Shown in pieces: positions 12,054 to 60,018 of a stretch of DNA of 64,000 nt. The notes below the pieces were generated by a model. It ran no database searches, was not told where the DNA came from, and saw only the letters and a list, made by a program, of their open reading frames with translations. Numbering within the stretch: position 1 is the stretch's first letter; each line of letters begins with the position of its first letter. The stretch is from Candidatus Rokuibacteriota bacterium (GTDB lineage Bacteria > Methylomirabilota > Methylomirabilia > Rokubacteriales > CSP1-6): positions 49,383-113,382 of the forward strand of contig JACPSW010000059.1 in the NCBI GenBank assembly GCA_016193045.1. Direction: 5' to 3'. Both the position numbers and the translations under genes were made by a program.

Positions 12054-13883
12054 ATGGTTGGGGGAAGGGGTTCGAGCGCTCACCGCCTCCTCGTCCTTCT
12101 ACTCGGGGGATTACTCGTCGGGGCGTCGCTGGTTCCCCCCGCCCTGGCGGCGCCACTGCCGGGCTTCCCGCTCCAGTCCTCGCAGGCCTCGCCCGTCACC
12201 GGCGCGGTCACGATCTCTGCCCCCTCCATCCTGCCCGAACCGGGCCTGCTGGGCGTCCAGTTCAAGGTCGACGGTTACGTGCTCGACGCGCTCGACGCGA
12301 CGGCGCCCTTCCAGGTCGTGTGGAGTGCCGCCAGTGCAACCAACGGCGACCATACCATCACGGCGGAGGTCCGGTTGACTTCGGGAATCGTCATCGAGTC
12401 GGCCCCGCTCAGTCTGACGGTCGACAACCCGTCGACCTTCAACCGCACGCTTCACGTCGATGCCACTGCCGGCAACGACGGCAACAATGGCCTGACACCC
12501 GACACGGCGTGGCGGACCCTCGACCGGGCCAACAACGCGGTGGTCGCGGGCGACACCGTGCTGCTATGGGGCACCTTCACTGGTCAGTACATTCGTCCCG
12601 CGATCTCAGGAACCCCCGCCACGCCGATCACCTTCAGGAGCGCTCCCGGACAGACCGCCGTGCTCGACGGTGGTCTCTCGGGCGTCGCGGCGCGGCTCAC
12701 CGCCCGCAGCTACATCGTGGTGGAGCAGCTCCGCATCCAGAACGTTCCCGGCCAGGCCGTCGTGCTGGAAGCCGGCGCCCATCACAACGTCCTGCGTGAC
12801 TTGCTTATCACAGATATTATCAACGGCACGGCGTGGGTCAGCGCCATCCGGATCACTCAGTCCAGCGACAACCTCATCGAGCGCAACACGATCACCAACA
12901 TCGGCAACGCGACGGCCGACCAGGGCGACAGCATGTGGATCGACAACGGATCGAGCCGCAACCGCATCCTCAGCAACACGATGCGGAACGGCAGCCATAG
13001 CCTCATCCTGATCGGCGGCGATTCGCCCGGTGACGCCGAGGTGGGCGACAACGTGGTGGCGGGGAACACGCTCTCGAACCCATGGGGGTCCCATATTGGT
13101 CTCTTGCATATGGCCCGACGAACGCTTATCGAGGGGAACCGCTTGTCCGACGCGAACGTGAACGGGACGAACCGCACGTCCGCCACCATTCAGGTGGTGT
13201 CACGCGATCACATCATCCGCTACAACGAGTTTGTCAACAACGGGGCAATCAATGCGGCTCCGGGTGCGGGCGGAACTCCGGGCATCTCGCTCTTGGCGTA
13301 CACCTATACGGCCGGGGTCGAGCAGGACGCGATCGGCAATCGGATATACCATAACGTCTTCTACGGCAACGGGACCTATGGGCTCTGGATGTCGGAGAAG
13401 GGCGGCCGCCGTGTCACCAACAACGTGATCGAGAACAACATCTTCTTCCGGAATGCCGGGTTCCCCCTCGGCAGCCAGACCTACACGATCGGGATTGAGC
13501 ACTACAGCAACCCGACGGCTTGGCCGGTCGGCAGCCTGAATGGCAACCGCATCCAGAACAACATCCTCCTGCGGCAGCCGGGGTCGGCGGGCGAGCCGAT
13601 GGTGCTGCGGATCCGCAACGCCAGCCAGGGCGGCAACCTGACCTACACGCTCTCGGCCTTCCAGCAGACCTACACGGAAGCGGCCAACAATCTGGAGGCC
13701 GACCCCCTGTTCACCGACGCGGTCAGTGGTGTGTTCACACTGCGAGCCGGTAGCCCCGCGGTCGATGCCGGCCTGATCATTCCCGGGATCGCCTACCTCG
13801 GGGCAGCGCCGGATCTGGGAGCCTACGAGTACGGGGCAGGCGGGCCGACACCCGCGGCCCCTTCAGGGTTAAGCCTCCGGTAA
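12054..13883 (+). CDS. Secreted right-handed parallel beta-helix protein (pectate-lyase fold) with an N-terminal Ig-like domain; paralog 1 of 3.
   Basis: Start chosen at the ATG at 12054 (MVGGRGSSAHRLLVLLLGGLLVGASLVPPALAA, a signal peptide; AAGGGGGA ribosome-binding site). An Ig-like domain is followed by the NRTLHVDATAGNDGNNGLTPDTAWRTLDRAN motif and repeated NxxxN/GxN beta-helix coils. It is paralogous to 55783..57633 and 57646..60018. Confidence 0.8.
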   Translation: MVGGRGSSAHRLLVLLLGGLLVGASLVPPALAAPLPGFPLQSSQASPVTGAVTISAPSILPEPGLLGVQFKVDGYVLDALDATAPFQVVWSAASATNGDHTITAEVRLTSGIVIESAPLSLTVDNPSTFNRTLHVDATAGNDGNNGLTPDTAWRTLDRANNAVVAGDTVLLWGTFTGQYIRPAISGTPATPITFRSAPGQTAVLDGGLSGVAARLTARSYIVVEQLRIQNVPGQAVVLEAGAHHNVLRDLLITDIINGTAWVSAIRITQSSDNLIERNTITNIGNATADQGDSMWIDNGSSRNRILSNTMRNGSHSLILIGGDSPGDAEVGDNVVAGNTLSNPWGSHIGLLHMARRTLIEGNRLSDANVNGTNRTSATIQVVSRDHIIRYNEFVNNGAINAAPGAGGTPGISLLAYTYTAGVEQDAIGNRIYHNVFYGNGTYGLWMSEKGGRRVTNNVIENNIFFRNAGFPLGSQTYTIGIEHYSNPTAWPVGSLNGNRIQNNILLRQPGSAGEPMVLRIRNASQGGNLTYTLSAFQQTYTEAANNLEADPLFTDAVSGVFTLRAGSPAVDAGLIIPGIAYLGAAPDLGAYEYGAGGPTPAAPSGLSLR

Positions 13884-13903
13884 ATCGGACCGGAGAGCTG
13901 GAG

Positions 13904-14614
13904 TCAGGTCCTCTTTCCCCCGCCCGAGCGAAGATCTAACGCTTTCCGTGCGCGTTCCCGGCAATCGCCAACGACCATTGGCATGGCGATTGCTGCACAC
14001 TCCCGAAACGCCAGCGGACGGCTTTCGACCCGGATCTGCCCTTTTCGGATGGCTGTGAGGACCGATGCGACCGTCAGATCTCCCTCGATAAGGGAGTAGG
14101 TTGTCCCGAGCTGCCGGACAGAATGGCTGTCCGAGGTGCCTATCAGCGGAAGACCGGCTTCCTTGGCCAGCCGGACCGCGGGCCGGTTGAAGTTGATTCG
14201 CCGGGTGTAGAAATGGCTGAACTCGATCGCATCGAAGAGATCGATTTCGTCGACGAGCCGCTTCCGCAGGGCGTACGAGGCGGGAAAGAACGGGTGGGGC
14301 GCCACCACGAGCCACTCCGGGCGGCGAAGCCGCCGCAGGTCGGCGAAGGTCCGGACCCGCTCCGGCGGCACGTCGAGGTTATAGAGGAGGACGTGCTTGC
14401 CTTCGATCGTCGCTTCGACCCCCGCTATCAGGAGAATTCCGCGCTCCCGCGCATAACCCTTGAGGTCCCCGCCGAAGGTGACGATGTTGTGATTGGTGAT
14501 GCTGAGCACATGAAAGCCGGACGCCGCCGCCCGGTCGATGAGATCCGGCGCATCGTAGGTGATGAACGCATCCCGCTCCCGCGTGTGGAGATGCAGATCA
14601 GCCTTGAGCTCCAT
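13904..14614 (-). CDS. PHP-domain metal-dependent phosphoesterase (CpsB/YwqE-like family).
   Basis: Carries the N-terminal DLHLHT His motif, plus ITNH and GTSDSH motifs typical of the PHP family. It is the last gene of the long minus-strand locus. Confidence 0.7.
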
Positions 14615-15608: not shown

Positions 15609-15615
15609 GGATGAC

Positions 15616-16926: not shown

Positions 16927-16986
16927 CCTACCCTTCTCTCATCGGACGACCGGAATCCCACTAATTGTCATGCGCCACCCCAATGC

Positions 16987-19179
16987 CTAGTGCGGCTCGC
17001 CTTCGACCCCGACGTGGTCGCCTGGTCGCGCTGTGGCGGACGCATGCGCCTCCTCGCGACGATCGAGGATCCCAGGGGTATTGGCGAGATCCCGTCCCAT
17101 CTCGGGCTGACCACCGAGGTACTGCGCCGGGACCCGCCATGCGAGCAGCTGTTTACGCAGGGCGGCGCCCGTCTTTACGCGCGGTCGCCAGCCGAGTTCC
17201 TCGCGCGCCTTGCGGCAGTCGAACACCAGCCGCGCGTACGCAGAGCGCAGGCGGTAGGGAGAGATGGAGGCGGGACGCCCCAGCAGATTCAAGAGCCACT
17301 CAATCCCCCTTGCCAGGAAGCACGCCAGGCCCATCGGCACGTGGATGATCCTCAGGTGCGGTTCGCGCCCCTGAGCGTACAGCGAGGCCAGTTCCTCACG
17401 CGTGAGCGAGCCGTCGCCGACACATTGATAGATGCGACCATCGGTGAACGGGCTCCGCGCGGCCTTCACCATCGCTTCCACCGCGTCGTCCACGTGGATG
17501 AGCGGCAACCGGATCGATCGGTCGCCGATGAGGATCAGCCGTCTGCCGGCGCGCATGCCGACCGCAGCAGTGATCAGCGGGCTGCTCTCGCTCCACATCT
17601 GTCCGAGACGCAGGATCAGCGCGGGCACACTGCGCTCCTGCGCCGCAGCGCGCACGATCCGTTCCGCTTCGAGCTTCGCCCGCGTGTAGTAGCCGCGCTG
17701 CTGAGGGAAAGGTTCGAGCGGTGAATTCTCGGTGACCGGCCTCTCGGCGGGATGCCCCGCCCAGTCAGTCACCGAGAGGGAACTGATATGGATGAGCTTC
17801 CCCACGCGGTGCTTGTGGCAGGCCTCGACGATGTTCCGTGTGCCGGTGATCGTGGCCGCTTCATGCGCCTCCCAACCACCGCCCATCGCCGCGCCGATGT
17901 GGAAGACCGTGGTGGCGTTGGCGAGAGCGCGGTCCACCGCCTCTGGATCGCCCAGGTCGCCGAGCGTGACTTCGACCTGCGGGTGATGGAGGATTTCGGG
18001 CGGTGGCAACCGGCGCACGAAGAGCCGCATGAACTCCCCCTCGTCGATGAGTCGGTTCACGAAAGCGCGGCCGAGATGTCCGTTCGCCCCCGTCACGACG
18101 ACAGCCGGGCGATCGCTCGGCCGATACTGGCTGACAAACTTCGCTTTCGCGTGATCCGCCTCGCGGGCGGCCTGTTCGGTCCAACGCACGATGGCGCGCG
18201 CTTGCTCGACGCCAGCCGGCATCGGTCCGCCCGTGGCGAGCGCGTCGTAGAAGTTACGGACGAAATTGTGGAGGCCCTGATAGGGCTGAATCGAGCCCGC
18301 CATGAACCGCACAGCGTTGGAGCTGACTTGCGCGGCGATCGAACCCGCCTCGCCGATGGCGTTGACGACGCGCTCAACCGCCTTCGGCAGCGGCGTGTGG
18401 AAGCGACGGGTGAGGAACATCGAGAACAAATCCGCGCGCAGCGTCCCGCGCGTTCCCTGGATGATGAGTTGGTGCTGCAACGGCTTGATGCTCCATGAAA
18501 GATGGATGCCTCCGGCACCCCGCGCGCATCGGACAAGGGCGCGCCACTCGTCGAAATGGAGGTTGGGGTCGCGGGACCTCGCCCCTGACGTTCTGAAATC
18601 TATCCGTAGATCCTGAATGTCGCCGAGGAACTCCTGAAGAAGATACAGCGCGTGCACGCCGAGATCCCGGAATGGAAAGCCTCCGTCCCGGCACGGCGGC
18701 GGCAACGGCCCGCCGCGATGGGGCGGGTAGTTGGAGCTGCGGAGGTACTCGACGGCGATGATCTCGCCAATAGCGCCGCTGCGCACAAGGTGGAGCGCCT
18801 TCGCCACAAACGGGTCGCCGAGGAGTGAGTGGCTGACGCACAGGTTCACACCTCGCGACGTCGCTTCTCCGGCGAGCCGGTCGCAATCGTCGACGCTCGT
18901 CGCCAGCGGTTTCTCCACGAGGACGTGGCAGCCGAGGGCAAGGGCTTCAAGCGCGACGATGGCGTGACTGTCCGGCGGCGTGAGAACATGGACGACGTCC
19001 AGACCTTCCGCGGCCATAACGGCGAGGGATCGGAAGGACGGGAGGCCCGTGGCTTGAGCCCGGGCCGGGTCGAGGTCCGTAACGCCGACGATGCGCACAT
19101 GGGGGAGCCGCTTCAGCGCCTTGATATGAAACTCGCTGACGTACCCTGCGCCGACCAATCCGACGCGGAAGGTCTTCAT
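16987..19179 (-). CDS. Bifunctional fusion of a Gfo/Idh/MocA-family oxidoreductase (N-terminal) and an NAD-dependent epimerase/dehydratase SDR (C-terminal).
   Basis: 730 aa. The N-terminal domain has VGLVGAGYVSEFHIKAL...EKPLA. The C-terminal domain has VVVTGANGHLGRAFVNRL...YYTRAKLEAE (YxxxK). The two domains are joined in a single ORF with no internal stop. Confidence 0.8.
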   Translation of the reverse strand: MKTFRVGLVGAGYVSEFHIKALKRLPHVRIVGVTDLDPARAQATGLPSFRSLAVMAAEGLDVVHVLTPPDSHAIVALEALALGCHVLVEKPLATSVDDCDRLAGEATSRGVNLCVSHSLLGDPFVAKALHLVRSGAIGEIIAVEYLRSSNYPPHRGGPLPPPCRDGGFPFRDLGVHALYLLQEFLGDIQDLRIDFRTSGARSRDPNLHFDEWRALVRCARGAGGIHLSWSIKPLQHQLIIQGTRGTLRADLFSMFLTRRFHTPLPKAVERVVNAIGEAGSIAAQVSSNAVRFMAGSIQPYQGLHNFVRNFYDALATGGPMPAGVEQARAIVRWTEQAAREADHAKAKFVSQYRPSDRPAVVVTGANGHLGRAFVNRLIDEGEFMRLFVRRLPPPEILHHPQVEVTLGDLGDPEAVDRALANATTVFHIGAAMGGGWEAHEAATITGTRNIVEACHKHRVGKLIHISSLSVTDWAGHPAERPVTENSPLEPFPQQRGYYTRAKLEAERIVRAAAQERSVPALILRLGQMWSESSPLITAAVGMRAGRRLILIGDRSIRLPLIHVDDAVEAMVKAARSPFTDGRIYQCVGDGSLTREELASLYAQGREPHLRIIHVPMGLACFLARGIEWLLNLLGRPASISPYRLRSAYARLVFDCRKAREELGWRPRVKTGAALRKQLLAWRVPAQYLGGQPEMGRDLANTPGILDRREEAHASATARPGDHVGVEGEPH

Positions 19180-20336: not shown

Positions 20337-21358
20337 TCGGATTCCCCTTGTGGCTTGCCGATCCTTACTACGCGCGGGTCAGTTGATCTAATTGGAAGCG
20401 ACGCCCAATGCGCAATCGGTTTCTTCAGGACACAAAAGACCGCAAAGACGAAAAATTCGTCCAGCAGGGGAATTTGGCTCAGGCCCCTCAACCAGTGGCC
20501 GACTCTGAACGCCTTTCCAGAAAATCCGATGCGCTCAAAGTGAACAGTTTCAAATGGTAGAACCTTGAGCATCCGCCGGAATTGACGGATCGTCATGTGG
20601 TTGAGGTACTCCTTCCAATGTTGGTGATCCGTGTAGGGATTCGGGCGACGTTTTCCGGTGTCGGGATCGAACCAATAGTAGGCAGGTGTGTATTCGTCTG
20701 AGGCGTAAAGGTAAGCCGCGGCGTTCAGGAGTGTCTCCATCGAGAAGACCGTATGGAGCCACGGAAGCGGAAGGATGTCCTCAAGGTGTGAACCATACGG
20801 ACCAAGCCAGGGATGAAAGTGGACCAGAAACACACCCCCCGGGCGCAAGAGGCGATAGCACTCCCTGAAAATGTCTTCGGCCCGGCTGAGATGTTCAACG
20901 GTGTCTACGGTGTAGACCACATCGACGGACTCGTTGGGCAGGGGAATGCCCGAGGCCGTGGATTCCACAAAATGGATTCCGTTGCCGTGCTCGGCGCGCC
21001 CACGGGCCAGAGCCGATCTATCAATGTCAATTCCGATTGGCGAAAACTGCTCCTGCTGGCGAAAGGCCTTGAGGAGGTATCCCGTCGAGCATCCGAGCTC
21101 AGCGACCGACTTTCCACTGAACCGGGCGAAACGAGCGAACAGGCCGTAGTATCTCTCGATGTTTGACAAGCGGTCATCCACATGGTTCTGAGCGCTATCG
21201 TATCTCGCTCCCAGTCGGCCGTATCTCAAACCGAACCGTCGGAGTCGTCCGCTAAGAAACACTCGAGCGACGGCCAAACATACCTTCTCCGAAACCCGTG
21301 TGAGCTCTGGCCGCCCATTCAGTGCGACATCCTGCATTTTCGCCTCATGCTGGCCCAC
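20333..21358 (-). CDS. Class I SAM-dependent methyltransferase.
   Basis: SAM-binding motif I (VAELGCSTGYL), motif post-I (IGIDID) and LLRPGGVF are present. Confidence 0.75.
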   Translation of the reverse strand: MGQHEAKMQDVALNGRPELTRVSEKVCLAVARVFLSGRLRRFGLRYGRLGARYDSAQNHVDDRLSNIERYYGLFARFARFSGKSVAELGCSTGYLLKAFRQQEQFSPIGIDIDRSALARGRAEHGNGIHFVESTASGIPLPNESVDVVYTVDTVEHLSRAEDIFRECYRLLRPGGVFLVHFHPWLGPYGSHLEDILPLPWLHTVFSMETLLNAAAYLYASDEYTPAYYWFDPDTGKRRPNPYTDHQHWKEYLNHMTIRQFRRMLKVLPFETVHFERIGFSGKAFRVGHWLRGLSQIPLLDEFFVFAVFCVLKKPIAHWASLPIRSTDPRVVRIGKPQGESE

Positions 21359-21743
21359 GGAACCCTCCGTCAGAAGGTCCTAACAGTCGTTCGAAGGCCC
21401 ACAAGCAAGGTGTGCCGTGAGGAGGGCGGCTGGAGAAGTCCGGGGCGTCATCACGGTTCCCATCGCCGAGCTGGCCGTAGTCGTTCAGCCCCCAGCACCG
21501 CACCGTGGCCTCCTCCAGGAGCGCGCAGGTGTGGAAGGCGCCGGCTTCGACGGCGGTGGCCGTGCTGATTACGGTCGCCGTGAACTGCTGGGTCTGGCCG
21601 ACGGCGATGGTGGGATCCGCCGGCGTGACGCTGATGGCCTGGGCGGCGACCTCATCTGTAGCCAGAGCGAGCACGAGGCTGAAGACGCCGGACAAAACCA
21701 GTGCTCTTGCCTTCCATTGTGGACCACGCCCATGTGGCTTCAT
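21345..21743 (-). pseudogene. Truncated paralog of the RCC1-repeat secreted protein. Only the signal peptide, Ig-like (Big_2) segment and first RCC1 blade survive before the frame diverges.
   Basis: About 300 bp (roughly 21440-21745) are near-identical to the 5' end of the full gene (roughly 24185-24444), including a 53-bp identical run (gccgtgaactgctgggtctggccgacggcgatggtgggatccgccggcgtgac). After about 100 codons the homology ends, and the ORF runs into the start of the methyltransferase gene. Confidence 0.5.
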
Positions 21744-26452: not shown

Positions 26453-26575
26453 CGCACATCCTCCTCTTGACCGGCGGGTTGTGAAACCAATCACCAGGAA
26501 AGCGTCGCCCCACGGTCTGCCGCTTCGTCTGGAAACATGACCGGGCGCCACTTCCCGTCAACACACATTCCTAAT

Positions 26576-29089: not shown

Positions 29090-29099
29090 TCTCCTGCTC

Positions 29100-29525
29100 C
29101 TAGAAGGTGTTTACCGCCCTCATCGCACAGAGACGAGCCTCGGTCGCTGACAGGACCCAGCCTCTAACGTTGACTACGCGGCCATGCAGGAAATCGTCAC
29201 GTTGCTGCTGGTGCACCAAGTCGCGGAGTTTTTCTATGTCAGTGTCCAGGAGCTCGGCACCACGGCCTGGCCACGTTGAACAAATCACACCAAGCAGCAA
29301 CTGCACGTTCGCCTCGCTGGGGACCTGCTTAAGGTATTCTCGTCCAACGATCGCGGCGCTTTCTTTACAGGCCAACACACCAGCGAGTTTCGAAGCGCCC
29401 GGATCGTGGACTCTGCTCCTACGCACGGCACCCCACGTGCCTAGTGGGCGGCAGAGACCAAGGGCCCCCACCCAAAGCATGAAAGTCAGGAAACGTCGTC
29501 TGAGGATGCTTGTAGACGGGCTCAT
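29100..29525 (-). CDS. Gluconate 2-dehydrogenase subunit-3-family small TAT-exported subunit, the partner of the GMC oxidoreductase.
   Basis: Carries the RRRFLTF twin-arginine signal at the N-terminus and is the small subunit typically encoded beside GMC flavoproteins. It overlaps the upstream GMC gene by 4 nt. Confidence 0.6.
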   Translation of the reverse strand: MSPSTSILRRRFLTFMLWVGALGLCRPLGTWGAVRRSRVHDPGASKLAGVLACKESAAIVGREYLKQVPSEANVQLLLGVICSTWPGRGAELLDTDIEKLRDLVHQQQRDDFLHGRVVNVRGWVLSATEARLCAMRAVNTF

Positions 29526-49726: not shown

Positions 49727-49733
49727 CGGCTGG

Positions 49734-50855
49734 CTAGCCTCTCGCGAAGCCGGCGGCGGCCACTCCGCTCTCGCTCCGGAGTGGGCCGATCCCGACGCGC
49801 TCGTAGACGTCGAGCAGCCGATCCTGGGCGCCCGCGTCTTCGCATCGCGAGCGCCAGTCGCCGGTGAGCCGCAGGTGCAAGGCCCGGGCGACCTTCTCGG
49901 CGAGATCTTGTACGTCCCCTCGGCGACAGAGGAGGACGCCGGCCGGCCGGAAGTCCGTATCGGTGGCGACGACGGGGACGCCCAGCGCCAAGGCCTCCCG
50001 CACCGAGGAGGCGTCGCCATCGATGTAGCTCGGCCGGACATAGACGTCGGCTCGTGCCAGGAGGGCCAGGCATCGCTCGTGGGCGACCTCTCCTAGGCAG
50101 AGGACGCGATCCTCGAGCCCGCGCTCGGCTATGAGGCGGCGCAGCGCGGCGTCGCCCCCGGAGCCGATCACGATGCATCCCAAGCGGGGGAAGTGCGCGC
50201 TGAGACGGGCGACCGCGTCCACCACGATCGGAAGGCCGTACCACTCCGGCTCACGTCCGCCTATCGTGGCCACCAGCGGCGTGAAGGCGCTCAGCATGCG
50301 CTGGTCCGCCTCCGTCAGCGGGGCAGTCGCGCGGATCCCCAGGTAAGCGGGGATGACGGACAGCCGGTCCGTCTGGACGCCGAGGCCCGCGACCGCCTCG
50401 CGGATCTTGGCGTTGACGCAGATGACGTGGGCGAACGACGCGATGCCGAGGCGCACCAGGGAGCGGCTGGCGGGGTTGAGACTCAGCAGGTACCCCGGGG
50501 CCAGGCCAGAGTGAAGCGTGAGCAGGCCCGTCGCCCCACGCATCCGGAGGACCATGGCCGCCACCACGACCATCAAGCAGCTCTTCCGGTTGTCGCAGTT
50601 GGTGTGGAGGTGGAGTAGCGCCCCGGGCACGAGGCTTTCGCATAGCGCGGTGAGGAAGTCGACACGCCGGGCGATGGCACGGTACTCCGCGCTCGGCGGC
50701 GCGCCCCGACGGAGGTTGAGGATCTTGACGGGCACGCCGTGCGTCCGGAGCCGCTGGGCCAGCTCGCTGATGTGCAGACCTTCCCCGCCCATGGGCGGGG
50801 GGTAGTAACCAGCCAACACCACGGGCCTCAGGCCGACGCCTACGGTCGCCCGCAT
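49734..50855 (-). CDS. Glycosyltransferase family 4 (GT-B fold).
   Basis: Pattern includes the C-terminal EALALGVPVVATD (the E-x7-E region). Confidence 0.75.
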   Translation of the reverse strand: MRATVGVGLRPVVLAGYYPPPMGGEGLHISELAQRLRTHGVPVKILNLRRGAPPSAEYRAIARRVDFLTALCESLVPGALLHLHTNCDNRKSCLMVVVAAMVLRMRGATGLLTLHSGLAPGYLLSLNPASRSLVRLGIASFAHVICVNAKIREAVAGLGVQTDRLSVIPAYLGIRATAPLTEADQRMLSAFTPLVATIGGREPEWYGLPIVVDAVARLSAHFPRLGCIVIGSGGDAALRRLIAERGLEDRVLCLGEVAHERCLALLARADVYVRPSYIDGDASSVREALALGVPVVATDTDFRPAGVLLCRRGDVQDLAEKVARALHLRLTGDWRSRCEDAGAQDRLLDVYERVGIGPLRSESGVAAAGFARG

Positions 50856-52029: not shown

Positions 52030-53337
52030 TCACCGCGTCGGGGAGACCAACACCGCCAGCCGAGCGCCGATCACCCGGATGGCCGCCGCGAGGCCGGCCA
52101 GGTAAAAGAGCAGGAAGCCGTAGGAAATGGGCAGGAAGGAGGCGCCGACCAGAAAGCTGTAGATCGCCAGTTCCAGGCCGCTGGCTATGGCGATGACCTC
52201 GCGCGCCTCCGGGACCGGCCTGAGCCGCCTCTGCGTCTGTCGGAGCCCTCGCAGGCTCTGAACGAACAGCAGGACGTAGACGAGCAGTCCCGGAAGGCCG
52301 AGGTCGGCCCCCACCCGCAGAAATACGCTGTGGGTCACGTGTTCCCCCTTGAACCCCTTCTCGACGTACACAAGGCCCTCCATCCCCAGGCCTGCGCCGA
52401 TCAACGGATTCTCCAGCATGGACCTGAAGGCGACCTGCATCTGTTGCGAGCGGCTCTGGATGGAGCCGGCGCGGTCGCGGTCCCAATCGAAGAGGCTGTA
52501 CAGCCGGTCGGCGTAGCCGTCCGGAGCCAGGAAGATGCCCACGACGACAAGCGCCGATGCCCACAGCAGCGCCACGGGCCCCCGTGCCCGGACCCATCTT
52601 GCCAGCAGCACCGCAACAATCAGCGTCAAGCCGAGGAACCCACCGCGGGAAAAGCTGACGATGACCCCTGCCACCGCCAGACCCATCCCCGCCAGGAGCA
52701 GCACCTTCACGAGGCGCCGCCGCGCCACGAAATAGAGCCCGATCGTGAGCGCGAGGATCACGTTGAGGGTGAGGGCGAGATCGACGGCGTTGTCGGCCAA
52801 CTGGTTGGCGTAGCCCCAGATGCGGCCAGGCTCACGGGACATCGTGTGCTCGGTGGCGAAGTTGCGCAGCGCCGTCGCCGAGATGATGAAGCCGTAGAGG
52901 ACGATGGACGCGACGAGCAGCTTGAGGCGTCGCATCGTCTCCAGTAGATTGGCGATCAGAAAGAAGACGATGACGCTCTTCACGAAAGTGCTGAGGAAGA
53001 ACTCGAGGCTGCCGCCGGGCGAGAGCGAGAACGGGATCGACACCACGGCCGCGAGCGCGAACCACAAGACCAGGCGAACCTCGGGCGTGACGACCGTCAC
53101 GGGCCGCCGGTTCATGAGACGGCTCAGGACATAGGCGACCGCGGCCAGGCCTGCCGACGTCGCCGCGAGACGGAGCGGCTCCAGGCTCGGGAAGATGTTT
53201 TGTGGCGCGATGAACAGGACGAACGTGAAGAACATGAGGCACCAGAACGGGACGACGTTCTCCCGGGGTGGGGCCGCCGACGTCCGGGACGCGCCGGAGC
53301 GGGCCCGCGCCTCGCTCACGATCCCGGCGGCCGTCAC
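52030..53337 (-). CDS. O-antigen/EPS polymerase or ligase-family membrane protein (Wzy_C domain).
   Basis: About 10 transmembrane helices, with the characteristic periplasmic loop FSRGGFLGL. Confidence 0.65.
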   Translation of the reverse strand: MTAAGIVSEARARSGASRTSAAPPRENVVPFWCLMFFTFVLFIAPQNIFPSLEPLRLAATSAGLAAVAYVLSRLMNRRPVTVVTPEVRLVLWFALAAVVSIPFSLSPGGSLEFFLSTFVKSVIVFFLIANLLETMRRLKLLVASIVLYGFIISATALRNFATEHTMSREPGRIWGYANQLADNAVDLALTLNVILALTIGLYFVARRRLVKVLLLAGMGLAVAGVIVSFSRGGFLGLTLIVAVLLARWVRARGPVALLWASALVVVGIFLAPDGYADRLYSLFDWDRDRAGSIQSRSQQMQVAFRSMLENPLIGAGLGMEGLVYVEKGFKGEHVTHSVFLRVGADLGLPGLLVYVLLFVQSLRGLRQTQRRLRPVPEAREVIAIASGLELAIYSFLVGASFLPISYGFLLFYLAGLAAAIRVIGARLAVLVSPTR

Positions 53338-53380
53338 CGCGTCACCTCGCCGAGCACGGCCATGAGGTCGCTCACCGCGG

Positions 53381-54910
53381 TCACCCCTCTAGAGCTTCCC
53401 GGGCGGGGAGACCACCCAGCGCGCGGAGCCTTCGGCCCAGGGCCTGGATGGCTTTCTTTTCGCCGCTGCTGAGCACCGCAAACCGCCACAGCATCACGAC
53501 GTAGATCGCCCCGAAGGCCACACCGGCGGCGGCGAGGATCAGCCAGGAGGCCAGGAGTCCCGTTGTCTTCACCAGCAGCACCGGAATCGCCGACACGAGA
53601 GAGGCCGCGACGATCCGGGCCAGCACGCCGAGCGGCCATACCTTCGCGTACGGCAGGCCGGTGAGGCGGCTGACGCGGACGAGCAGGATCACGTGGGTGG
53701 CCGCGAGCGCCAGGACGAAGGCGAGCGGCGCGCCCGGGAGGCCGAGCGTCGGGGGAAGCACGGTCAGGAGCCCCACACACACCATGCCGCGGACCGCGTA
53801 CATGAAGAACAAGAAGCGCGTGTCGGCCCACGCCCGGGGCACGTAGTCGAGCTGGGTCGCCATGAGGGGAAGCACCAGCAGGGACACCCGGAAGACCGGC
53901 ACGGCGTCCACGAAACGGTGCGTGTACAGGAGCGTGATCACCTCGCCGGCGAGGAGCTCGAGCAAGACGAACAGGGGCAGGCAAACCAGCGCCACCAGCC
54001 GGATGCCGGCGCCGATCGTGTCGTGGATCTGGTCGCGGGCGCCGACCTGCGCCAGCCGGGTGACCTGCACAACGACCATACTGACGACAGCGCTGTAGAT
54101 CACATCGACGAACGGGACACTCATGGAGCCCACCGCGAACACGGCGAACGTCCGGGTGTCATACCCCCAGGCGACGTAGTACTGCGGCGCCGCCAAGGCG
54201 AGGACCTCCACGATGTGGCCGCCCCAAAAAGGGATCGCGTAGTTCCACTGGCGCCCCACGGGCCCCCAGGACAGCGCCCGGAAGGACAGGAGGCGGGCCC
54301 GACGGAGATAGAGGAGGAGCGCGGTGATCCGTGCGGCGTGGACCACGGTCACGGCCCACAGAATGGCGGGCACGCCTCCCCCGGCCAGGAGCACTCCCAG
54401 GACGAGGGCGGCGAGAGCGAGATCTGAGACGCCGTAGGCCACCGCCGCCTGGCGGGCGCGCTGCCGCGCGATGAGGATGGCTTCCAGCACGGAGCTGACG
54501 AGCGTCGCGCCCAGAAACACCGCCAGTTGAGGCGCCAGGGGACCCAGGAGATTCTCGTAAAAGGCTGCCCCCCACCACGGCGCCCCAGCAACGAGCGCCG
54601 CCCCGCCGACGACGGCCACGAGCGCCAGCACGGCCAGGCTCTGGGAGACGTACTGGGGTCTGGCCCGCTCGTCGCGCTGGAGGAAGTAGTACAGGCTGGC
54701 GGGCAGGCCGAGATCCAGCAGCAGAATGAACGTGGTCTGCAGCAGGAAGGCCTGCTTGTACAGTCCGAACTCGATCTGGGGCAACTGCCGGGCCAGGACC
54801 ACGGCCATGGCGAACCGGCAGACGAACCCCGCCCCCCGTCCCACCACCAGCGCGGCGGTGCCTCGCCCGAAGCTCGAGTCCACGGCTGGCCGCGAGGGGG
54901 CCTTAAGCAC
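53381..54910 (-). CDS. Wzx-type oligosaccharide flippase (MOP superfamily polysaccharide biosynthesis protein).
   Basis: 509 aa with 12-14 transmembrane helices. The composition and length are typical of Wzx/RfbX flippases. Confidence 0.75.
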   Translation of the reverse strand: MLKAPSRPAVDSSFGRGTAALVVGRGAGFVCRFAMAVVLARQLPQIEFGLYKQAFLLQTTFILLLDLGLPASLYYFLQRDERARPQYVSQSLAVLALVAVVGGAALVAGAPWWGAAFYENLLGPLAPQLAVFLGATLVSSVLEAILIARQRARQAAVAYGVSDLALAALVLGVLLAGGGVPAILWAVTVVHAARITALLLYLRRARLLSFRALSWGPVGRQWNYAIPFWGGHIVEVLALAAPQYYVAWGYDTRTFAVFAVGSMSVPFVDVIYSAVVSMVVVQVTRLAQVGARDQIHDTIGAGIRLVALVCLPLFVLLELLAGEVITLLYTHRFVDAVPVFRVSLLVLPLMATQLDYVPRAWADTRFLFFMYAVRGMVCVGLLTVLPPTLGLPGAPLAFVLALAATHVILLVRVSRLTGLPYAKVWPLGVLARIVAASLVSAIPVLLVKTTGLLASWLILAAAGVAFGAIYVVMLWRFAVLSSGEKKAIQALGRRLRALGGLPAREALEG

Positions 54911-55904
54911 GGGACGTTCCTCCGAAGGTCTCCACCAGGATCTTCACGATCCGGCTCGCCGCCTGCCCGTCCCACAGCGGCGGAGGATCGTTCGGACAGG
55001 GCGGGTGCTCCAGAGTCCACAATGCTTCCGCCACGATGCGCGCCGGATCGGCGCCGATTACCCTATTCGTCCCGTGGCTGACGGTGACCGGACGCTCGGT
55101 GGTGTCCCGGAGGGTCAGGCAAGGCACGCCAAGGACCGTCGTCTCCTCCTGGACCCCTCCAGAATCGGTGAGGACGAGACGGGCACGGCTCATGAGGGCG
55201 ATGAAGTCGAGGTATCCCAGGGGATCGAGATAGGTGATGCCCTTTCTGGACAGAGGTCCACTGGAATCCGGCATCCCCTTGAACAGGTAACTTTGGCGGA
55301 GGAGCTGGTGCTTCACGCGCGGGTGGACGGGAAAGACAATGGGCACCTGGCGAGCCAGCTCCTCGAGCGCTTCCAGGTAGTTCATCAGGGTCAGGGGGTC
55401 GTCCACGTTGGAAGGGCGGTGGAGGGTCAAGACCGCGTACGACTCACCGTCCAGCCCCAGCCGGCTCAGGATCGCCGACCGTTCCCATCTCGACCGGAAC
55501 GTCTGCAGGGCGTCGATCATGAGGTTGCCGACGAAATGGACCTTCTCCGGCGTGATGCCCTCCCGGAGCAGGTTCTGCCGGCCGCTCTCTTCCGTGACGA
55601 ACAGCAGGTCGGCCACGGCGTCCGTCAGCACCCGGTTGATTTCCTCGGGCATGGTCCGGTCGAAGGAGCGGAGACCGGCCTCGACGTGGGCGACCGGGAT
55701 GCGAAGCTTCACCGCCGTGAGGGCGGCGGCCAGTGTTGAGTTCACATCCCCCACGACCAGCACGAGGCCCGGGCGCGTCGATTCAAGAAGAGGCTCCAGC
55801 CGCCGCATCACCTCGGCGGTCTGAACCGCGTGGGAGCCCGAGCCCACGCCGAGGTTGAAGTCCGGCGGACGGATGTCCAGCTCGGTGAAGAACTGCGCCG
55901 ACAT
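54903..55904 (-). pseudogene. Second UDP-GlcNAc 2-epimerase (wecB) copy, missing the N-terminal ~40 codons (Rossmann beta1-alpha1).
   Basis: The first ATG of the ORF (MSAQFFTELD) aligns to about residue 53 of the intact copy. Homology continues upstream in the same frame (LLVHTGQHYDGPM) to about 55,940 and then stops abruptly inside the 3' end of the beta-helix gene. No in-frame start codon was identified in the homologous upstream stretch. Confidence 0.5.
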
Positions 55905-57633
55905 CGGACCGTCGTAGTGCTGGCCGGTGTGGACGAGCAGCGGGGTCAGAGCGGACGCCTGGGATGCGCAGTCCCCGGTCCACGGCCGGACTGCCCGCCC
56001 GCAGCGTGAAGACCCGCTTGGCCTCGTCGGTGAACAGCGGGTCGATCTCGAGGTTGTCGGTGGCCTCGCGGTGAGTCTCCTGGAACTGCGCCAGGGTGTA
56101 TGTCAGGTTCTCGCCCTGGCTCGTGTTGCGGATCCGCAGCACCGCCGACTTGCCCGCCGATCCGGGCTCGCCCAGGAGGATGTTGTTCACAATCCGATTG
56201 CCATTCAGGCTCCCCACGGGCCAGGCCGTCGGGTTGTGGTAATGCTCGATCCCGATCGTGTAAGGCCCGCTGTTCCGGAAGAAAATATTGTTGGCGATCA
56301 GGTTGTCGCGCACGCTGCGGCCGTCCTTTTCAGACATCCAGATCGCGTATGACCCGTTGCCGTAGAAGACGTTGTGGTAGATCTGGTTGCCGATCGCGTC
56401 TTGGGGGAGGGCCTCACCTTTCTCCGTGTAGACATACCCGAGCAGCAAGAATGAGGTCGCGTTGTTGAAGACCTCGTTGTAGCGGATGATGTGGTCGCGC
56501 GACATAATCTGGATCGCCGTGGCAGTAAAGTTCACATTGGCCCGCTTCGCATCGGAGATGCGGTTGCGCTCGACGAGCGTTCGTCGGGCCATCCCGCCCA
56601 GCCCCATCCCCGTCCCCCACGGATTCGACAGGCTGTTCCCCGCCACCACGTTGTCTGCCACCTCGGCCTGGCCGGCCCTGTCACCGCCGACCTGGATCAG
56701 GGCGTGACCGGCGTTGCGCAGGGTGTTCTTCAGGACGCGGTTGCGGCTCGATCCGTTGTCGATCCAGATGCTGTCTCCCTTGTCGCCATTCAGATCACCG
56801 ACGTCGATGATCTGGTTCCGCTCGATGAGATTGTCGCTGGACCTGGTGATTCGAATAGCGTGGCCATAGGCGCCGGGTGCCGTGCCGGTATCCGCGATAT
56901 AGGAGTCGCGCACGACGTTGTGATGCGCGCCGGCGTCGAGCATGACGGCATTACCGGGGACGTTCTGGATCCGGAGCCGCTCCACCACGATGTGGCCGCG
57001 AGCCTCGAGCCTCACCGCGACGCCGGAGCGGCCGCCGGCGAGCACGGCGGTCTGGTTGGGATAGCTCTTGAAGGTGATCGGCTTCGCGGGAGTTCCCGAG
57101 ACCGCGGGACGAATCTGCTGGGCCGTGAAAGTCCCACGCAAGAGCACCGTATCACCCGCGACGACGGAGCGGTTGGCCTTCTCCAGGGTCCGCCACGCCG
57201 TCTCCGGGCTAGCCCCGTCCTTGCCGTCGTCGCCGCTGGCGGCATCGACGTAGAGGACCCGGTTGAAGGTCGGCGGGTTCACGACGGTCAGCCGGAGGGG
57301 GGCGGACACGATCACGGCCCCCGAACGGTAGTGGGCCTCCGCTGTGACCGTATACTCTCCAGGGGTCGCGCTGGCGGCGCTCCAGACCACCTCGTACGGA
57401 CGCGTGGTGTCCGGCGCGTCCAGGACGTAGCCATCCAGCTTGAACTGGACGGCGAGCAACCCCGGGTCCGGCGGCACCTCGGCGGTGAGCATCACGGCTC
57501 CGCTCACCGGGGATGGTTGAGAGGACCGGAGTGAGACGGGCAAGGACTGCGCGTGGCTGGAAACCGGGCCGCACACCAGCAGCAGGGCCACGAGGAGCGG
57601 GAGACCCCTTGCCAAGCTTCGGTGGTCGTTCAC
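55783..57633 (-). CDS. Secreted right-handed beta-helix protein with an N-terminal Ig-like domain (paralog 2). Its C-terminal tail is replaced by read-through into wecB-derived sequence.
   Basis: GTG start and signal peptide (LARGLPLLVALLLVCGPVSSHA). Motifs match paralogs 1 and 3 up to ...GLRIPGV. The last 56 aa (RSDPAARPHRP...) are unrelated and are encoded by an alternative frame of the truncated wecB. Confidence 0.75.
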   Translation of the reverse strand: MNDHRSLARGLPLLVALLLVCGPVSSHAQSLPVSLRSSQPSPVSGAVMLTAEVPPDPGLLAVQFKLDGYVLDAPDTTRPYEVVWSAASATPGEYTVTAEAHYRSGAVIVSAPLRLTVVNPPTFNRVLYVDAASGDDGKDGASPETAWRTLEKANRSVVAGDTVLLRGTFTAQQIRPAVSGTPAKPITFKSYPNQTAVLAGGRSGVAVRLEARGHIVVERLRIQNVPGNAVMLDAGAHHNVVRDSYIADTGTAPGAYGHAIRITRSSDNLIERNQIIDVGDLNGDKGDSIWIDNGSSRNRVLKNTLRNAGHALIQVGGDRAGQAEVADNVVAGNSLSNPWGTGMGLGGMARRTLVERNRISDAKRANVNFTATAIQIMSRDHIIRYNEVFNNATSFLLLGYVYTEKGEALPQDAIGNQIYHNVFYGNGSYAIWMSEKDGRSVRDNLIANNIFFRNSGPYTIGIEHYHNPTAWPVGSLNGNRIVNNILLGEPGSAGKSAVLRIRNTSQGENLTYTLAQFQETHREATDNLEIDPLFTDEAKRVFTLRAGSPAVDRGLRIPGVRSDPAARPHRPALRRSDVGAVLHRAGHPSAGLQPRRGLGLPRGSDRRGDAAAGASS

Positions 57634-57645
57634 CAGTAATCGCGC

Positions 57646-60018
57646 CTACGACGTGACCCGCGTGTCCATGGCCTCTTGCACCTCCGCCTGGGTCAGCGCG
57701 CGGTTGTAGACCCGAACCTCGTCGATCAGCCCGCCGAAGAAGTCGAGGTTCGACGCGCCGTAGATCCAAGCCCCGATCTGGAGCGCATCAGTGACTGCGG
57801 GCAGCGATACCGATCGGGCGGTCCCCTGCGGTGCCCCGTTCAGGTAGGCGCGCAGGGTCGCGCCATCGTAGACAAGCGCTACGTGATGCCAGGTGTTCGT
57901 CGAGATGGCCGTGCCGAAGGTGCGGCCGCCGGAGAAGGTGATCACGCCGTTCCTGAGGAAAAAGGCTCGCGTACTCCCGACCGTCATGATCGTCTCGTAC
58001 GCCTCGTTGCTCGGGTTGAAGACCCAGGCCATCATGGTGAAGGCCGGACCGAGCGTCACTGTGCCCGCAGCGACGCGATCGTGGACGCCGTCGAAGGCAA
58101 GTGCCCTCCCCAAACCCCCCGGCGTGTGCGTCGTCCTGGTGGCGCCCGAGATGGTGGCACTGCGGTTGTTTCCCGAGGAGTCGACGGCGGTGGCGCCACT
58201 CCCTTCGTCGAACCCGTAGGCGGCCACGAGGCCGCCGGCCGCGGCGACCTCGAAGATGCCGATATCCGGGGCGGCCCCCTGGAAGTGGACGCCGGGGATG
58301 ATCACGCCCTCATCGATGGCAGAGCTCCCCGCCTGGAGGGCGAACACCCGGTTCGCCTCGTCGGCGAAGCGCGGGTCGGTCTCGAGGTTGTTGGCCGCCT
58401 CTGGGTAAAGGGCCTCGAATTGAGCCAGGGTGTAATCGACGTTGCCCCCCTGGTCGGGGCGGCGAATGCGCAGCACGGCGAGCTCCCCGGCGGAGCCGGG
58501 CTCCCGGAGGAGGATGTTGTTCTGGATCCGATTCCCGTTCAGGCTGCCTTCCGGCCACGCCACCGGCGTCTGGAAATGCTCGATGACGACCGAATAGATG
58601 GCGCCCCCGAAGGCAAAACCGCTGTTTCGGAAGAAGACGTTGTTCGCGATGAGGTTGTCGCGAACCGTGCGGCCGTCCTGTTCGAACAACAGGATCGCGA
58701 CCCCGGCCTGTCCCGCGTTGGCGGGCGCGGCCGTCCCCCCGTTGCCGTAGAAGACGTTGTGGTAAATCTGGTTGCCGATCGAGTCCTGCCCGATGGGTCC
58801 GAAGGCGAAGCCGCCCACGTGGATGCCCGCGCCCGCGTTGTCGAAGACCTCGTTGTACCTGATGATGTTGTCGCCGGCCGCGATCTGAATCCCCGGCCCG
58901 GGGGGGTTGACGCCGTTGCGGGCCCCGTCGGAAATCCGGTTGCCCTCGACGAGCGTCCGCCGGGCTCGCCACGAGAGGATAAGGGGCGTCGCCCACCGGT
59001 TGGACAGCACGTTGTTGGCCACGACGTTGTCGAGGACATCGGCGTCATCCGGCCGGTCGCCGCCGATCTGGATCAGGCTGTGGCCGCCGTTCGTCAAACG
59101 GTTGTTGAGGATCAGGTTCCGGCTGGCGCCGTTCGCGATCCAGACCGAGTCGCCGATGTTGGCCGCCTCGTCGCCCACATCCCGGATGATGTTGGCGTCG
59201 ATGACGTTGTCGCTGGAGCCGTCGTAGATGAGGATGTCGGTGCCCGTGAGGTCAGAGTTCCTGACCACGTTGTGGTGCGCGCCCTCGGCCAAGAAGACGC
59301 CGGACACTCCGATCGGGCTGCCGATGTTCGTCATGGCGAGGCCGTCGACGATGATGTAGCTCTCGGCCGAGCCCCTGTCGAGCCACACGACAGCGGCGAA
59401 CCATCCGCCGTCGAGCACGGCGGTCGCCCCCGGCGCGCTGCGGAAGGTGATCGGCCGGTCGGCCGTCCCCGACGTGAGGGGCCGGATCACCTGGCCCACG
59501 AATGTGCCCCGCAGCAAGACCGTGTCGCCTGCTACGACCGACTGGTTGGCCCTGTCGAGCGTCCGCCAGGCCGTGCTCGGGCCCAGTCCGTCGTTCGCGT
59601 CGTCGCCGCTGGCAGCATCCACGTAGAGCGTTCGGTTGAAGGCCAGGGGGTTGGCCACGGTGAGGTGGAACGGGGCGGATTCGATCACTTCGCCCGAGGC
59701 GTAGCGGGCTTCAGCGGTGATCGTGTGCTCGCCGTTCACGGCGCTGGCCGCGCTCCACAGGATCTCGTAGGGAAAGGCGGTATCGAGCGCTTCCAGCGGG
59801 TAGCCGTCGAGTTTGAACTGCACGCCGAGGAGCCCAGCCTCGGGCGGGACGTCGGCGGAGAGCGTCACGACGCCGGTCACCGGCGACGACTGGGACGCGC
59901 AGATCGCGAACCCCGGGAGCGCGGCCGGTTGGGCGGCCACGGGCAGGGGCAGGGCGGCCCAGGCCGCGAGCAGCAGGAGCGCCCGGCAGGCCCGAGCGAG
60001 GATCGAGTGTGCGTTCAC
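57646..60018 (-). CDS. Secreted right-handed beta-helix protein with an N-terminal Ig-like domain and a C-terminal LamG/concanavalin-A-like lectin domain (paralog 3).
   Basis: Signal peptide ILARACRALLLLAAWAALPLPVAA. The beta-helix core is paralogous to 12054..13883. A C-terminal ~200 aa LamG-like domain is present (FDGVHDRVA...WHHVALVYDG...LRAYLNG...IDEVRVYNRALT). Confidence 0.8.
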   Translation of the reverse strand: MNAHSILARACRALLLLAAWAALPLPVAAQPAALPGFAICASQSSPVTGVVTLSADVPPEAGLLGVQFKLDGYPLEALDTAFPYEILWSAASAVNGEHTITAEARYASGEVIESAPFHLTVANPLAFNRTLYVDAASGDDANDGLGPSTAWRTLDRANQSVVAGDTVLLRGTFVGQVIRPLTSGTADRPITFRSAPGATAVLDGGWFAAVVWLDRGSAESYIIVDGLAMTNIGSPIGVSGVFLAEGAHHNVVRNSDLTGTDILIYDGSSDNVIDANIIRDVGDEAANIGDSVWIANGASRNLILNNRLTNGGHSLIQIGGDRPDDADVLDNVVANNVLSNRWATPLILSWRARRTLVEGNRISDGARNGVNPPGPGIQIAAGDNIIRYNEVFDNAGAGIHVGGFAFGPIGQDSIGNQIYHNVFYGNGGTAAPANAGQAGVAILLFEQDGRTVRDNLIANNVFFRNSGFAFGGAIYSVVIEHFQTPVAWPEGSLNGNRIQNNILLREPGSAGELAVLRIRRPDQGGNVDYTLAQFEALYPEAANNLETDPRFADEANRVFALQAGSSAIDEGVIIPGVHFQGAAPDIGIFEVAAAGGLVAAYGFDEGSGATAVDSSGNNRSATISGATRTTHTPGGLGRALAFDGVHDRVAAGTVTLGPAFTMMAWVFNPSNEAYETIMTVGSTRAFFLRNGVITFSGGRTFGTAISTNTWHHVALVYDGATLRAYLNGAPQGTARSVSLPAVTDALQIGAWIYGASNLDFFGGLIDEVRVYNRALTQAEVQEAMDTRVTS

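Follow-up and report, generated by a model that had tools for sequence, protein, structure and literature searches.

Three beta-helix paralogs and a truncated wecB

The window, a 64-kb stretch of DNA from a soil Candidatus Rokubacteria MAG, contains three related genes, here called P1, P2 and P3, together with genes for polysaccharide synthesis. The features discussed below are these:

12054..13883, + strand: P1, ORF of 609 aa, P0034 at NCBI ('right-handed parallel beta-helix repeat-containing protein'); predicted signal peptide ~aa 1-32, Big_7 Ig-like domain ~aa 37-125 (12162..12428), right-handed beta-helix ~aa 126-575 (12429..13778)
13904..14614, - strand: PHP-family phosphatase gene, convergent with P1 (Pfam PHP_C/PHP)
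52030..53337, - strand: Wzy polymerase, with Wzx directly downstream of P2 and wecB
53381..54910, - strand: Wzx flippase
54903..55954, - strand: remnant of wecB (UDP-GlcNAc 2-epimerase), no start codon; its Pfam Epimerase_2 match begins at profile position 24
55783..57633, - strand: P2 ORF; native stretch aa 1-560 (55955..57633) with predicted signal peptide, Ig-like domain (~57277..57543) and beta-helix
55783..55954, - strand: non-native P2 tail, aa 561-616 (56 residues), out-of-frame wecB (DNA alignments to contigs L001 and L034; P0039 sequence)
Between 55955 and 55954: junction at which 127 bp are missing (DNA alignments to L001 and L034)
57646..60018, - strand: P3, 790 aa, 100% identical to P0001; predicted signal peptide, Ig-like domain (~59650..59913), beta-helix (~58294..59649), Laminin_G_3 domain aa 646-781 (57676..58083)
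60024..61334, - strand: UDP-ManNAc/NDP-sugar dehydrogenase-like gene, stop codon 5 nt upstream of the P3 start

The three proteins are paralogs, with BLASTP identities of 63.8% (P1/P2), 55.2% (P1/P3) and 56.8% (P2/P3) over ~570-583 aa (E = 0), and their alignment is collinear, with indels chiefly in loops. A tblastn search found no fourth copy within the window. All three match Pfam Beta_helix (PF13229; P1 48.1, P2 61.4 and P3 45.7 bits, cutoff 25.9); NosD (PF05048) is matched by P2 (31.1 bits) and P3 (30.0 bits) and falls just under its cutoff of 23.6 in P1 (22.7 bits), and the Pel9A-like family PF22842 is recorded for their orthologs. The Big_7 (PF17957) matches are marginal throughout (24.4-24.6 bits, cutoff 24.1). 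Laminin_G_3 (PF13385) scores 76.2 bits in P3 (cutoff 27.6); because the AlphaFold2 model of this region is of low confidence (pLDDT 30-55), we assign the LamG domain from the Pfam match alone. Sec-type export of all three proteins is predicted from their N-termini, which, like those of the orthologs, combine a charged n-region with a hydrophobic core and an A-x-A-like site. Both members of the tandem pair start with GTG and a similar motif, (M)NDHRSLAR in P2 and (M)NAHSILAR in P3. An earlier sequence-only reading had described the three ORFs, their common Ig-like plus beta-helix order, the LamG domain of the third copy and the start motif shared by the pair, and all of this is borne out, the 3' end of P2 excepted.

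That reading had taken P2 to run to the end of its ORF, and this holds for residues 1-560 but not for residues 561-616. Two independent assemblies, Logan contigs L034 and L035, match the window at 100% identity on either side of the junction and contain the 127 bp that are missing from it; P2 is therefore fused out of frame after residue 560 to a 5'-truncated wecB. In L034 and L035 the P2 sequence closes with '...IPGVVYHGSAPDIGAFEVDR*', and the gene shares 4 nt with an intact wecB of 376 aa. The native part in the window stops ~16 residues short of this natural stop, and the longest possible ORF of the wecB remnant is 333 aa, compared with 376 aa when intact.

Locus organisation and ancestry of the paralogs

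Translational coupling ties P2 and P3 into a Wzx/Wzy operon, in which the spacing around them consists of gaps of 5 and 12 nt and the 4-nt overlap. The stop codon of the dehydrogenase-like gene lies so close to the P3 start that the two genes belong to one operon, which continues past P2 and P3 with this gene, a YvcK-like gene and a priming sugar transferase. The locus encodes two wecB copies, UDP-ManNAc dehydrogenase-like and UDP-Glc dehydrogenase enzymes, GFO/DegT/hexapeptide enzymes, glycosyltransferases, Wzx, Wzy and the priming transferase, a gene set suggesting a polymer rich in uronic acids. Genes for a heparinase II/III-like protein and for a polysaccharide deacetylase are present as well. 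The suggestion that the paralogs bracket the locus holds for P1 alone, which lies at its boundary beside the PHP phosphatase gene; P2 and P3 are internal.

These arrangements recur. The P3-P2 tandem is kept between export/precursor genes and wzx/wzy in three other contigs (L001, L003 and L034), which repeat the Wzy/Wzx order downstream of P2 and wecB, and a P1-type gene is paired with PHP in L005 and L006, the PHP copies being 81-83% identical. The paralog lineages represented by P1, P2 and P3 are old, and for each of them orthologs occur in the matching gene neighbourhood. Across the three lineages, 136 columns are jointly conserved and only 4 conserved switches are lineage-specific; the lineages differ in variable loops and in C-terminal add-on domains, the P1 type having gained Ig-like modules (Big_13, HYR; up to ~1000 aa) and the P3 type LamG or DUF11. 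This pattern gives no support to the earlier proposal that triplication reflects diversifying substrate specificity.

Remote homologs in other phyla (27-31% identical) lie in glycan-catabolic contexts, beside GH123, lambda-carrageenase-like propellers and a sugar-binding protein. On this basis the paralogs might be depolymerases of foreign polysaccharides, serving nutrition or competition and only incidentally near a biosynthetic locus. P1 itself sits at the locus edge, on the opposite strand and beside unrelated genes, and the P1-like gene of L007 likewise has unrelated genes upstream. However, the translational coupling of P2 and P3 within a biosynthetic operon, the retention of their position in at least three other Rokubacteria contigs and the conserved P1-PHP pairing make a foreign substrate very improbable, as does the finding that no sugar uptake or catabolic genes lie near the paralogs in the window.

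Beta-helix fold and candidate groove residues

In the AlphaFold2 model of P1 (pLDDT 86.4, pTM 0.86) a beta-sandwich (~aa 37-125) gives way to a beta-helix that extends to ~575; within the Ig-like region, aa 51-123 form six to seven strands, modelled at pLDDT >90. The helix is a three-stranded right-handed coil with Asn ladders, as in the pectin-lyase-like superfamily, and fold searches identify it as the generic beta-helix CAZyme fold. Fold and remote homology lead to polysaccharide lyases and glycoside hydrolases, and, among proteins of solved structure, those nearest in sequence are without exception enzymes. The paralogs belong to a large uncharacterised branch of this superfamily, with 2,562 clusters at E <= 1e-30.

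The groove residues specific to the family are Asp292, His315 and Trp344. Among 50 family members that are only 25-43% identical, Asp292 is kept in 40 and His315 in 43; in the most remote homologs Asp292 is replaced by Gly or Asn. From the repeat register and an alignment with PsAly, the PL31 alginate (polymannuronate) lyase of Paenibacillus sp. FPU-7 (PDB 6KFN), we deduce that the three residues would share one groove, Asp292 aligning with the PsAly cation ligand Glu181 at the bottom of its cleft. Structural ladders account for most of the remaining conserved polar residues, which leaves the case for a catalytic centre thin.

We compared this candidate site with known signatures. The PL31 pair Tyr184/Lys221 (PsAly numbering) is not conserved: catalytic Tyr184 aligns with Trp295, with Tyr present in 6/50 members, and Lys221 aligns in both profile alignments with a non-conserved, non-basic position. 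For Glu216 and Asp219, which with Glu181 make up the first PL31 cation site, the aligned positions change with the alignment used, and none of them is acidic. The helix contains one Lys in P1, 11 in P2 and none in P3, and the single Lys position that P1, P2 and P3 have in common, K71, falls in the Ig-like domain. Lys-base lyase chemistry of the PL3, PL6, PL9 or RbmB type is excluded for P1 and P3, there being no conserved groove Lys. The putative active-site residues match no characterised enzyme family. Where conserved groove Asp, Glu or His had been sought as a check, Asp292 and His315 are indeed kept, but with no known catalytic signature.

AlgG-type C5-epimerisation was also put forward by the sequence-only reading. 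The paralogs could in principle act as polymer-level C5-epimerases of ManNAcA/GlcA like AlgG/AlgE, possibly with the heparinase II/III-like protein as AlgG acts with AlgL: the locus makes uronic acids, encodes that protein and a polysaccharide deacetylase, and a conserved His beside an Asp would suit C5 proton abstraction. The DPH(D/E) motif of AlgG/AlgE is, however, missing, a regular-expression search finding no DPH in any paralog, and the AlgG match is marginal (E 0.39 with profile A1, 2e-3 with A5). His315 would lie in the T3 turn ahead of PB1, unlike His154 of AlgE4, which we take to be at PB1 position 3. Moreover, polymer-level epimerisation is not known to occur in Wzx/Wzy heteropolymers. 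We therefore consider epimerisation of this kind quite improbable.

The same residues bear on whether the paralogs are catalytic at all. As matrix or surface proteins of the adhesin, S-layer or RbmC/Bap1 type, their modules would bind EPS or surfaces and tether the polymer or cross-link the matrix. Loss of the known catalytic residues, the accretion of Ig-like modules and of LamG/DUF11, and the near absence of lineage-specific core changes all agree with this. We nevertheless regard a non-catalytic role as unlikely. Retention of Asp292 and His315 over thousands of clusters is more readily explained by catalysis, the remote homologs lie beside glycoside hydrolase and sugar uptake genes, and the nearest relatives of solved structure are enzymes. 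Adhesin-like repeats, named beforehand as a sign against enzymatic function, were not found in the paralog alignment beyond the helix coils.

Our preferred reading is that P1, P2 and P3 are exported (periplasmic/extracellular) glycan-processing enzymes acting on the acidic (ManNAcA/GlcA-type) polymer of their own locus, to which we give a probability of roughly 0.5. The earlier idea of secreted polymer-modifying enzymes survives in this general form, through operon coupling, recurring neighbourhoods and a lyase/hydrolase fold. The polymer would sit in the groove made by the PB1 strands of the helix and be cut where Asp292 and His315, from neighbouring rungs, form a centre, while Trp344 and Trp295 would serve as platforms for the sugars; beta-elimination or hydrolysis would be likelier than C5-epimerisation. 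The Ig-like domain, and LamG in P3, may keep the enzyme on the polymer or cell surface, and processing of this kind could set chain length or serve to release or remodel the polymer.

That three depolymerases should be retained together although their conserved cores are nearly identical is not obviously economical, a point against an enzymatic role.

Comparison with known polysaccharide-processing proteins

The best Foldseek matches (E ~2e-9) are the GH136 lacto-N-biosidases LnbX, TnX and BsaX and the GH120 xylosidase XylC. Homology with these is clear in the N-terminal cap 'YVdaasGdDandG...TL..A...GDtV' and in C-terminal 'SPAIDaG...PDiGAfE', but the likeness is mostly confined to the caps, and alignments of the GH136 catalytic region are unreliable. 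The catalytic carboxylates are Asp382 and Glu405 in XylC and two Asp in GH136; the nucleophile Asp382 falls opposite Ser447 in a low-confidence block of the alignment, next to a position, 448, that varies within the family; against NCBIfam LnbX the paralogs score 19-23 bits (cutoff 2500). With a deeper family profile, the best PDB sequence match is 9RX2, a 'Parallel beta-helix repeat protein' (E 4.6e-29), which shares the rungs of E360 and R389 as well as the C-terminal part, and matches in three separate pieces; as we found no publication for it, it adds no functional information.

Other comparisons that had been suggested yielded little. PelA and PslG are absent among the listed sequence and fold matches, and no esterase family occurs among the Pfam or structure matches. 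Phage tailspike depolymerases show no specific structural or sequence kinship beyond the generic fold, and no trimerisation or particle-binding domain was found. PsAly, a catabolic enzyme, lacks the rung bearing His315 as well as Ig-like and LamG domains. The mannuronan C5-epimerases AlgG and AlgE4 act on alginate made by a synthase-dependent pathway, in contrast to the Wzx/Wzy pathway here.

It is speculative, and rather improbable, that the core defines a new catalytic class, either a new CAZy PL/GH family or a polymer-level epimerase, with an Asp-His centre in place of Lys, Tyr or DPHD chemistry, and that its three copies in Rokubacteria, long diverged, act as a fixed module of the Wzx/Wzy pathway that is co-translated and works after polymerisation. 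If so, this would be a Wzy-dependent counterpart of the periplasmic AlgG/AlgL/AlgX machinery. Beta-helix enzymes encoded in EPS loci are already familiar; current understanding is not overturned, and we rate the finding as a whole as ordinary to moderate. Rokubacteria are nevertheless abundant in soil, uncultured and little known in their cell envelope, and a conserved exported beta-helix trio in their main Wzx/Wzy locus offers a handle on how their exopolysaccharide is shaped. Because the superfamily is very large and the Asp/His pair conserved, establishing the chemistry of this core would annotate thousands of metagenomic proteins.

[quoted passage not shown] It is 11% identical to the Rokubacteria proteins, which have no conserved Lys; the likeness would lie in remodelling of the polymer. 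The paralogs are encoded within a biosynthetic locus and conserved with it, as is characteristic of EPS-locus polymer-processing glycanases (WceF, RbmB, PslG, AlgL), among which WceF and RbmB are precedents with a beta-helix. In the role proposed for P1, P2 and P3 they resemble WceF of Pantoea stewartii, an exported right-handed beta-helix protein encoded in the Wzx/Wzy stewartan cluster, which cuts the cluster's own polymer and whose knock-outs produce longer chains (PMC7949094).

The paralogs and their place in the locus

The three ORFs that the sequence-only reading had placed here are present in the window (G+C ∼66%), and tblastn finds exactly three copies there.

12054..13883 (+): P1, 609 aa; signal peptide, Big_7 Ig-like domain, right-handed beta-helix
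55783..57633 (-): P2, native part aa 1-560; same domains
57646..60018 (-): P3, 790 aa; same domains plus Laminin_G_3 (LamG)

In BLASTP, P1 and P2 are 63.8% identical, P1 and P3 55.2%, and P2 and P3 56.8%, over ∼570-583 residues (E = 0 throughout); the alignment is collinear, with indels mostly in loops, and the start motif described for P2 and P3 is real. All three match Pfam Beta_helix far over threshold and Big_7 slightly over it, while NosD is exceeded by P2 and P3, with P1 slightly under. An AlphaFold2 model of P1 (pLDDT 86.4, pTM 0.86) opens with a disordered leader; a beta-sandwich then spans aa ∼37-125, and a right-handed beta-helix runs on to ∼aa 575. The P3 model has the same two domains. 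Because pLDDT falls to 30-55 in the LamG region of that model, the LamG domain is an HMM match alone (Pfam, aa 646-781, 76 bits). At the N-termini of the paralogs and their orthologs, a basic n-region precedes a ∼12-residue hydrophobic core and an A-x-A-like site, after which Gln mostly follows; from inspection of these features we infer that the proteins are probably Sec-exported.

The paralogs had been thought to bracket the locus. This holds for P1, which lies at its boundary, to the right of unrelated genes (molybdopterin oxidoreductase, FmdE, a DtxR-type repressor, an ABC transporter, a peptidase and a D-Ala-D-Ala-ligase-like gene), but not for P3 and P2, which are internal to an operon with intergenic gaps of 5 and 12 nt. 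Upstream in the same operon are a UDP-ManNAc dehydrogenase-like gene, a YvcK-like gene and a priming sugar transferase; downstream of P2 are wecB, wzx, wzy, GT4 and GT2 glycosyltransferases, a heparinase II/III-like protein and many sugar-modifying genes. Several other genes of the region deserve mention.

16987..19179 (-): 730-aa fusion of a GFO/IDH/MocA oxidoreductase and an NAD-dependent epimerase/dehydratase, unusual, among sugar-nucleotide pathway genes
21345..21743 (-): separate 132-aa RCC1 fragment
23032..24444 (-): RCC1-repeat beta-propeller protein with a C-terminal Big_2 domain, in the locus
24803..26551 (-): amidase with a twin-arginine signal, inside the locus
26000..30000: low-GC island (0.56-0.58 versus ∼0.66)
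26576..29089 (-): 837-aa ORF of the island, without a Pfam family; weak spermidine synthase/aminopropyltransferase likeness (NCBIfam, far under cutoff)
29100..29525 (-): 141-aa ORF of the island, next after the 837-aa ORF, no function assigned
47669..50041 (-): 790-aa heparinase II/III-like protein (Hepar_II_III_N and C domains), within the biosynthetic operon
61331..62581 (-): CofD-like gene

The heparinase II/III-like protein, kept in contigs L001 and L032, is a second candidate polymer-processing enzyme beside the beta-helix proteins, as lyase or epimerase. The CofD-like gene encodes a YvcK-family UDP-GlcNAc-binding protein (TIGR01826, 331 bits), not F420 CofD, and is also kept in contig L003, between the priming transferase and the remaining locus. 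The RCC1 fragment lies ∼1.3 kb from the larger RCC1 gene, past a methyltransferase gene, and together they look like a duplicated or broken gene. The low-GC island is possibly a horizontal acquisition into the locus. Related loci carry AsnB-type amidotransferases instead of the amidase, which points to amide chemistry acting on the uronic acids.

A 127-bp gap at the end of P2

P2 diverges from its paralogs past '...GLRIPGV' and then reads, in a different frame, into the UDP-GlcNAc 2-epimerase gene; alignment of L001 to the window also reveals sequence absent from the window at this P2/wecB point. The clearest evidence is a protein matching P2, P0039, encoded in both L034 and L035, which are independent Logan assemblies. 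Over residues 48-560 of P2 the identity is 100%; P0039 then ends in '...VYHGSAPDIGAFEVDR' followed by the stop, and its gene overlaps an intact 376-aa wecB by 4 nt. On either side, the DNA of L034 matches the window at 100% identity, and exactly 127 bp are missing from the window between 55955 and 55954. This gap takes out the last part of P2 together with the beginning of wecB. Residues 561-616 of P2, as previously read, are therefore not native, and the adjoining wecB (54903..55954) lacks its start and ∼43 N-terminal residues; the window has another wecB, intact, at 39684..40850. Either a deletion allele or a mistake in assembling the MAG would account for the gap. Protein matches from the source contig include P1 and P3, not P2, which would fit annotators having called P2 a pseudogene.

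Fold, known chemistries and a candidate active centre

An NCBIfam search of the three proteins gave no model over cutoff and hence no family. We matched a 50-member family profile to the PDB, judging sequence profiles more informative. The best match was 9RX2 (E 4.6e-29), whose function is not stated and for which our literature search found no paper; it was followed by the PL31 alginate lyase PsAly (6KFN, 3.5e-23), GH136 (1e-20 to 1e-22), Pel9A (1e-17), GH120 (1e-16), PL6 (6e-15) and AlgG (only 2e-3), a large part of this signal coming from a common N-terminal cap and from the 'SPAIDaG...PDiGAfE' region at the C-terminus. The core superfamily is uncharacterised and very large: a cutoff of E <= 1e-30 yields 2,562 representative clusters, and one of E <= 1e-10 yields 29,384. 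The proposed comparison with phage tailspikes yields generic fold likeness only, and we reject kinship with them.

The catalytic signatures of known beta-helix enzymes were compared. PsAly has Tyr184 and Lys221 as its catalytic residues and a cation held by Glu181, Glu216 and Asp219 (PMC6796002). In a confident alignment block its Glu181 corresponds to Asp292 and its Tyr184 to Trp295, while Lys221 is without a basic counterpart in the family in either alignment; PL31 membership is rejected because the Tyr/Lys pair is not conserved. RbmB, a VPS lyase, uses Lys227 (PMC12993940). The helix regions of P1, P2 and P3 contain 1, 11 and 0 Lys respectively, none conserved, which argues against Lys-base lyases, RbmB-like enzymes included. 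The suggested AlgG-type C5-epimerase fares no better, since the DPH motif is absent from all three paralogs and the HMM scores are marginal. The nucleophile of the GH120 xylosidase XylC lines up with a non-conserved Ser in a low-confidence block, and the GH136 alignments are unreliable across the catalytic part. The paralogs belong to the beta-helix superfamily but lie outside PL31, the Lys-base lyases and the AlgG-type epimerases.

Placing the sequence on the beta-helix repeat register assigned most conserved polar residues to ladders. One kind is formed by Asn at the T2 and T1 turns, another by alternating Asp272-Arg302-Asp332-Arg356-Asp385 in T1, and a third by Glu360-Arg389-Tyr432. The last three are the most conserved polar residues. 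We read them as structural and not catalytic, because they stack on the same PB2 position of successive rungs and because Glu360 and Arg389 have counterparts in PsAly (and in 9RX2, the Arg also in XylC) that are not among the listed active-site residues of PsAly; by the same reasoning we read the T1 ladder as structural, and we take the Asn ladders as structural too. With ladders removed, there remain Asp292 (40/50), His315 (43/50) and Trp344 (30/50), among members only 25-43% identical. They lie on consecutive rungs on the T3/PB1 side, and His315 and Trp344 are kept even in 24-31% identical homologs of other phyla. Judged from conservation and register, the active centre, if there is one, is best sought at Asp292/His315/Trp344.

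Relatives, descent and proposed role

P1 and P3 each match a protein of a Candidatus Rokubacteria MAG at 100% identity. Close homologs number ∼50, at 48-81% identity, and nearly all derive from soil metagenomes and Rokubacteria MAGs; a literature search found no publication on Rokubacteria EPS loci. The gene neighbourhood is kept among relatives, two related contigs having these gene orders:

L001: dehydrogenase, P3 ortholog (794 aa, LamG), P2 ortholog (582 aa), wecB, Wzy, GT4, AsnB, GT4, heparinase-like
L003: priming transferase, YvcK-like, unknown, Wza, Wzc, kinase, P3 ortholog, P2 ortholog, Wzx, Wzy

The same PHP phosphatase adjoins P1-type genes in L006 and in L005, where there are two in tandem. 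In L005 (814..7247) the pair lies upstream of the PHP gene, and its first copy is broken across two frames and is therefore a frameshift or pseudogene; P1-lineage copy number therefore differs among Rokubacteria.

A neighbour-joining tree resolves three old clades, P1-, P2- and P3-type, so the triplication is older than the divergence of these lineages. LamG is confined to one P3 subclade, the remaining P3-type proteins having no add-on or DUF11, and P1-type proteins gain Ig-like modules, reaching ∼1000 aa. The triplication had been taken to suggest diversifying substrate specificity. The three clades have 136 jointly conserved columns and only 4 in which conservation differs from clade to clade, which is evidence against divergence in chemistry, and we reject lineage-specific functional divergence; the differences sit in loops and appended binding modules.

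Remote homologs lie in other settings. In Latescibacterota and Gemmatimonadota (L016, 1804..17872; L011, 1821..17636), a beta-helix homolog with PKD belongs to a conserved block with two ∼1100-aa beta-propeller proteins, a PhyH dioxygenase, two DUF6785/DUF6784 membrane proteins and a sugar-binding protein. One of the beta-propeller proteins matches the lambda-carrageenase beta-propeller domain, and the block looks like an undescribed glycan-utilisation locus. In an Armatimonadota MAG the homolog adjoins GH123. These glycan-degrading contexts support the core fold as that of a glycan-active enzyme. A distant homolog in L032 has glycosyltransferases and a heparinase-like gene as neighbours, an arrangement shared with the window.

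The likeliest reading, at about even odds (roughly 0.5), is that P1, P2 and P3 are exported glycan-processing enzymes acting on the uronic-acid-rich polymer of their own locus; the Ig-like and LamG modules would serve attachment, and as chemistry we favour lysis or hydrolysis over C5-epimerisation. A serious rival, which we nevertheless consider unlikely, is that the three proteins are purely binding or structural. Unless the Asp/His centre turns out to be a new catalytic class, the arrangement is of moderate to low interest. It is a further example of an already known kind of system, and for the enzymes we propose WceF, the beta-helix enzyme of the stewartan locus (PMC7949094), and RbmB as functional analogues.
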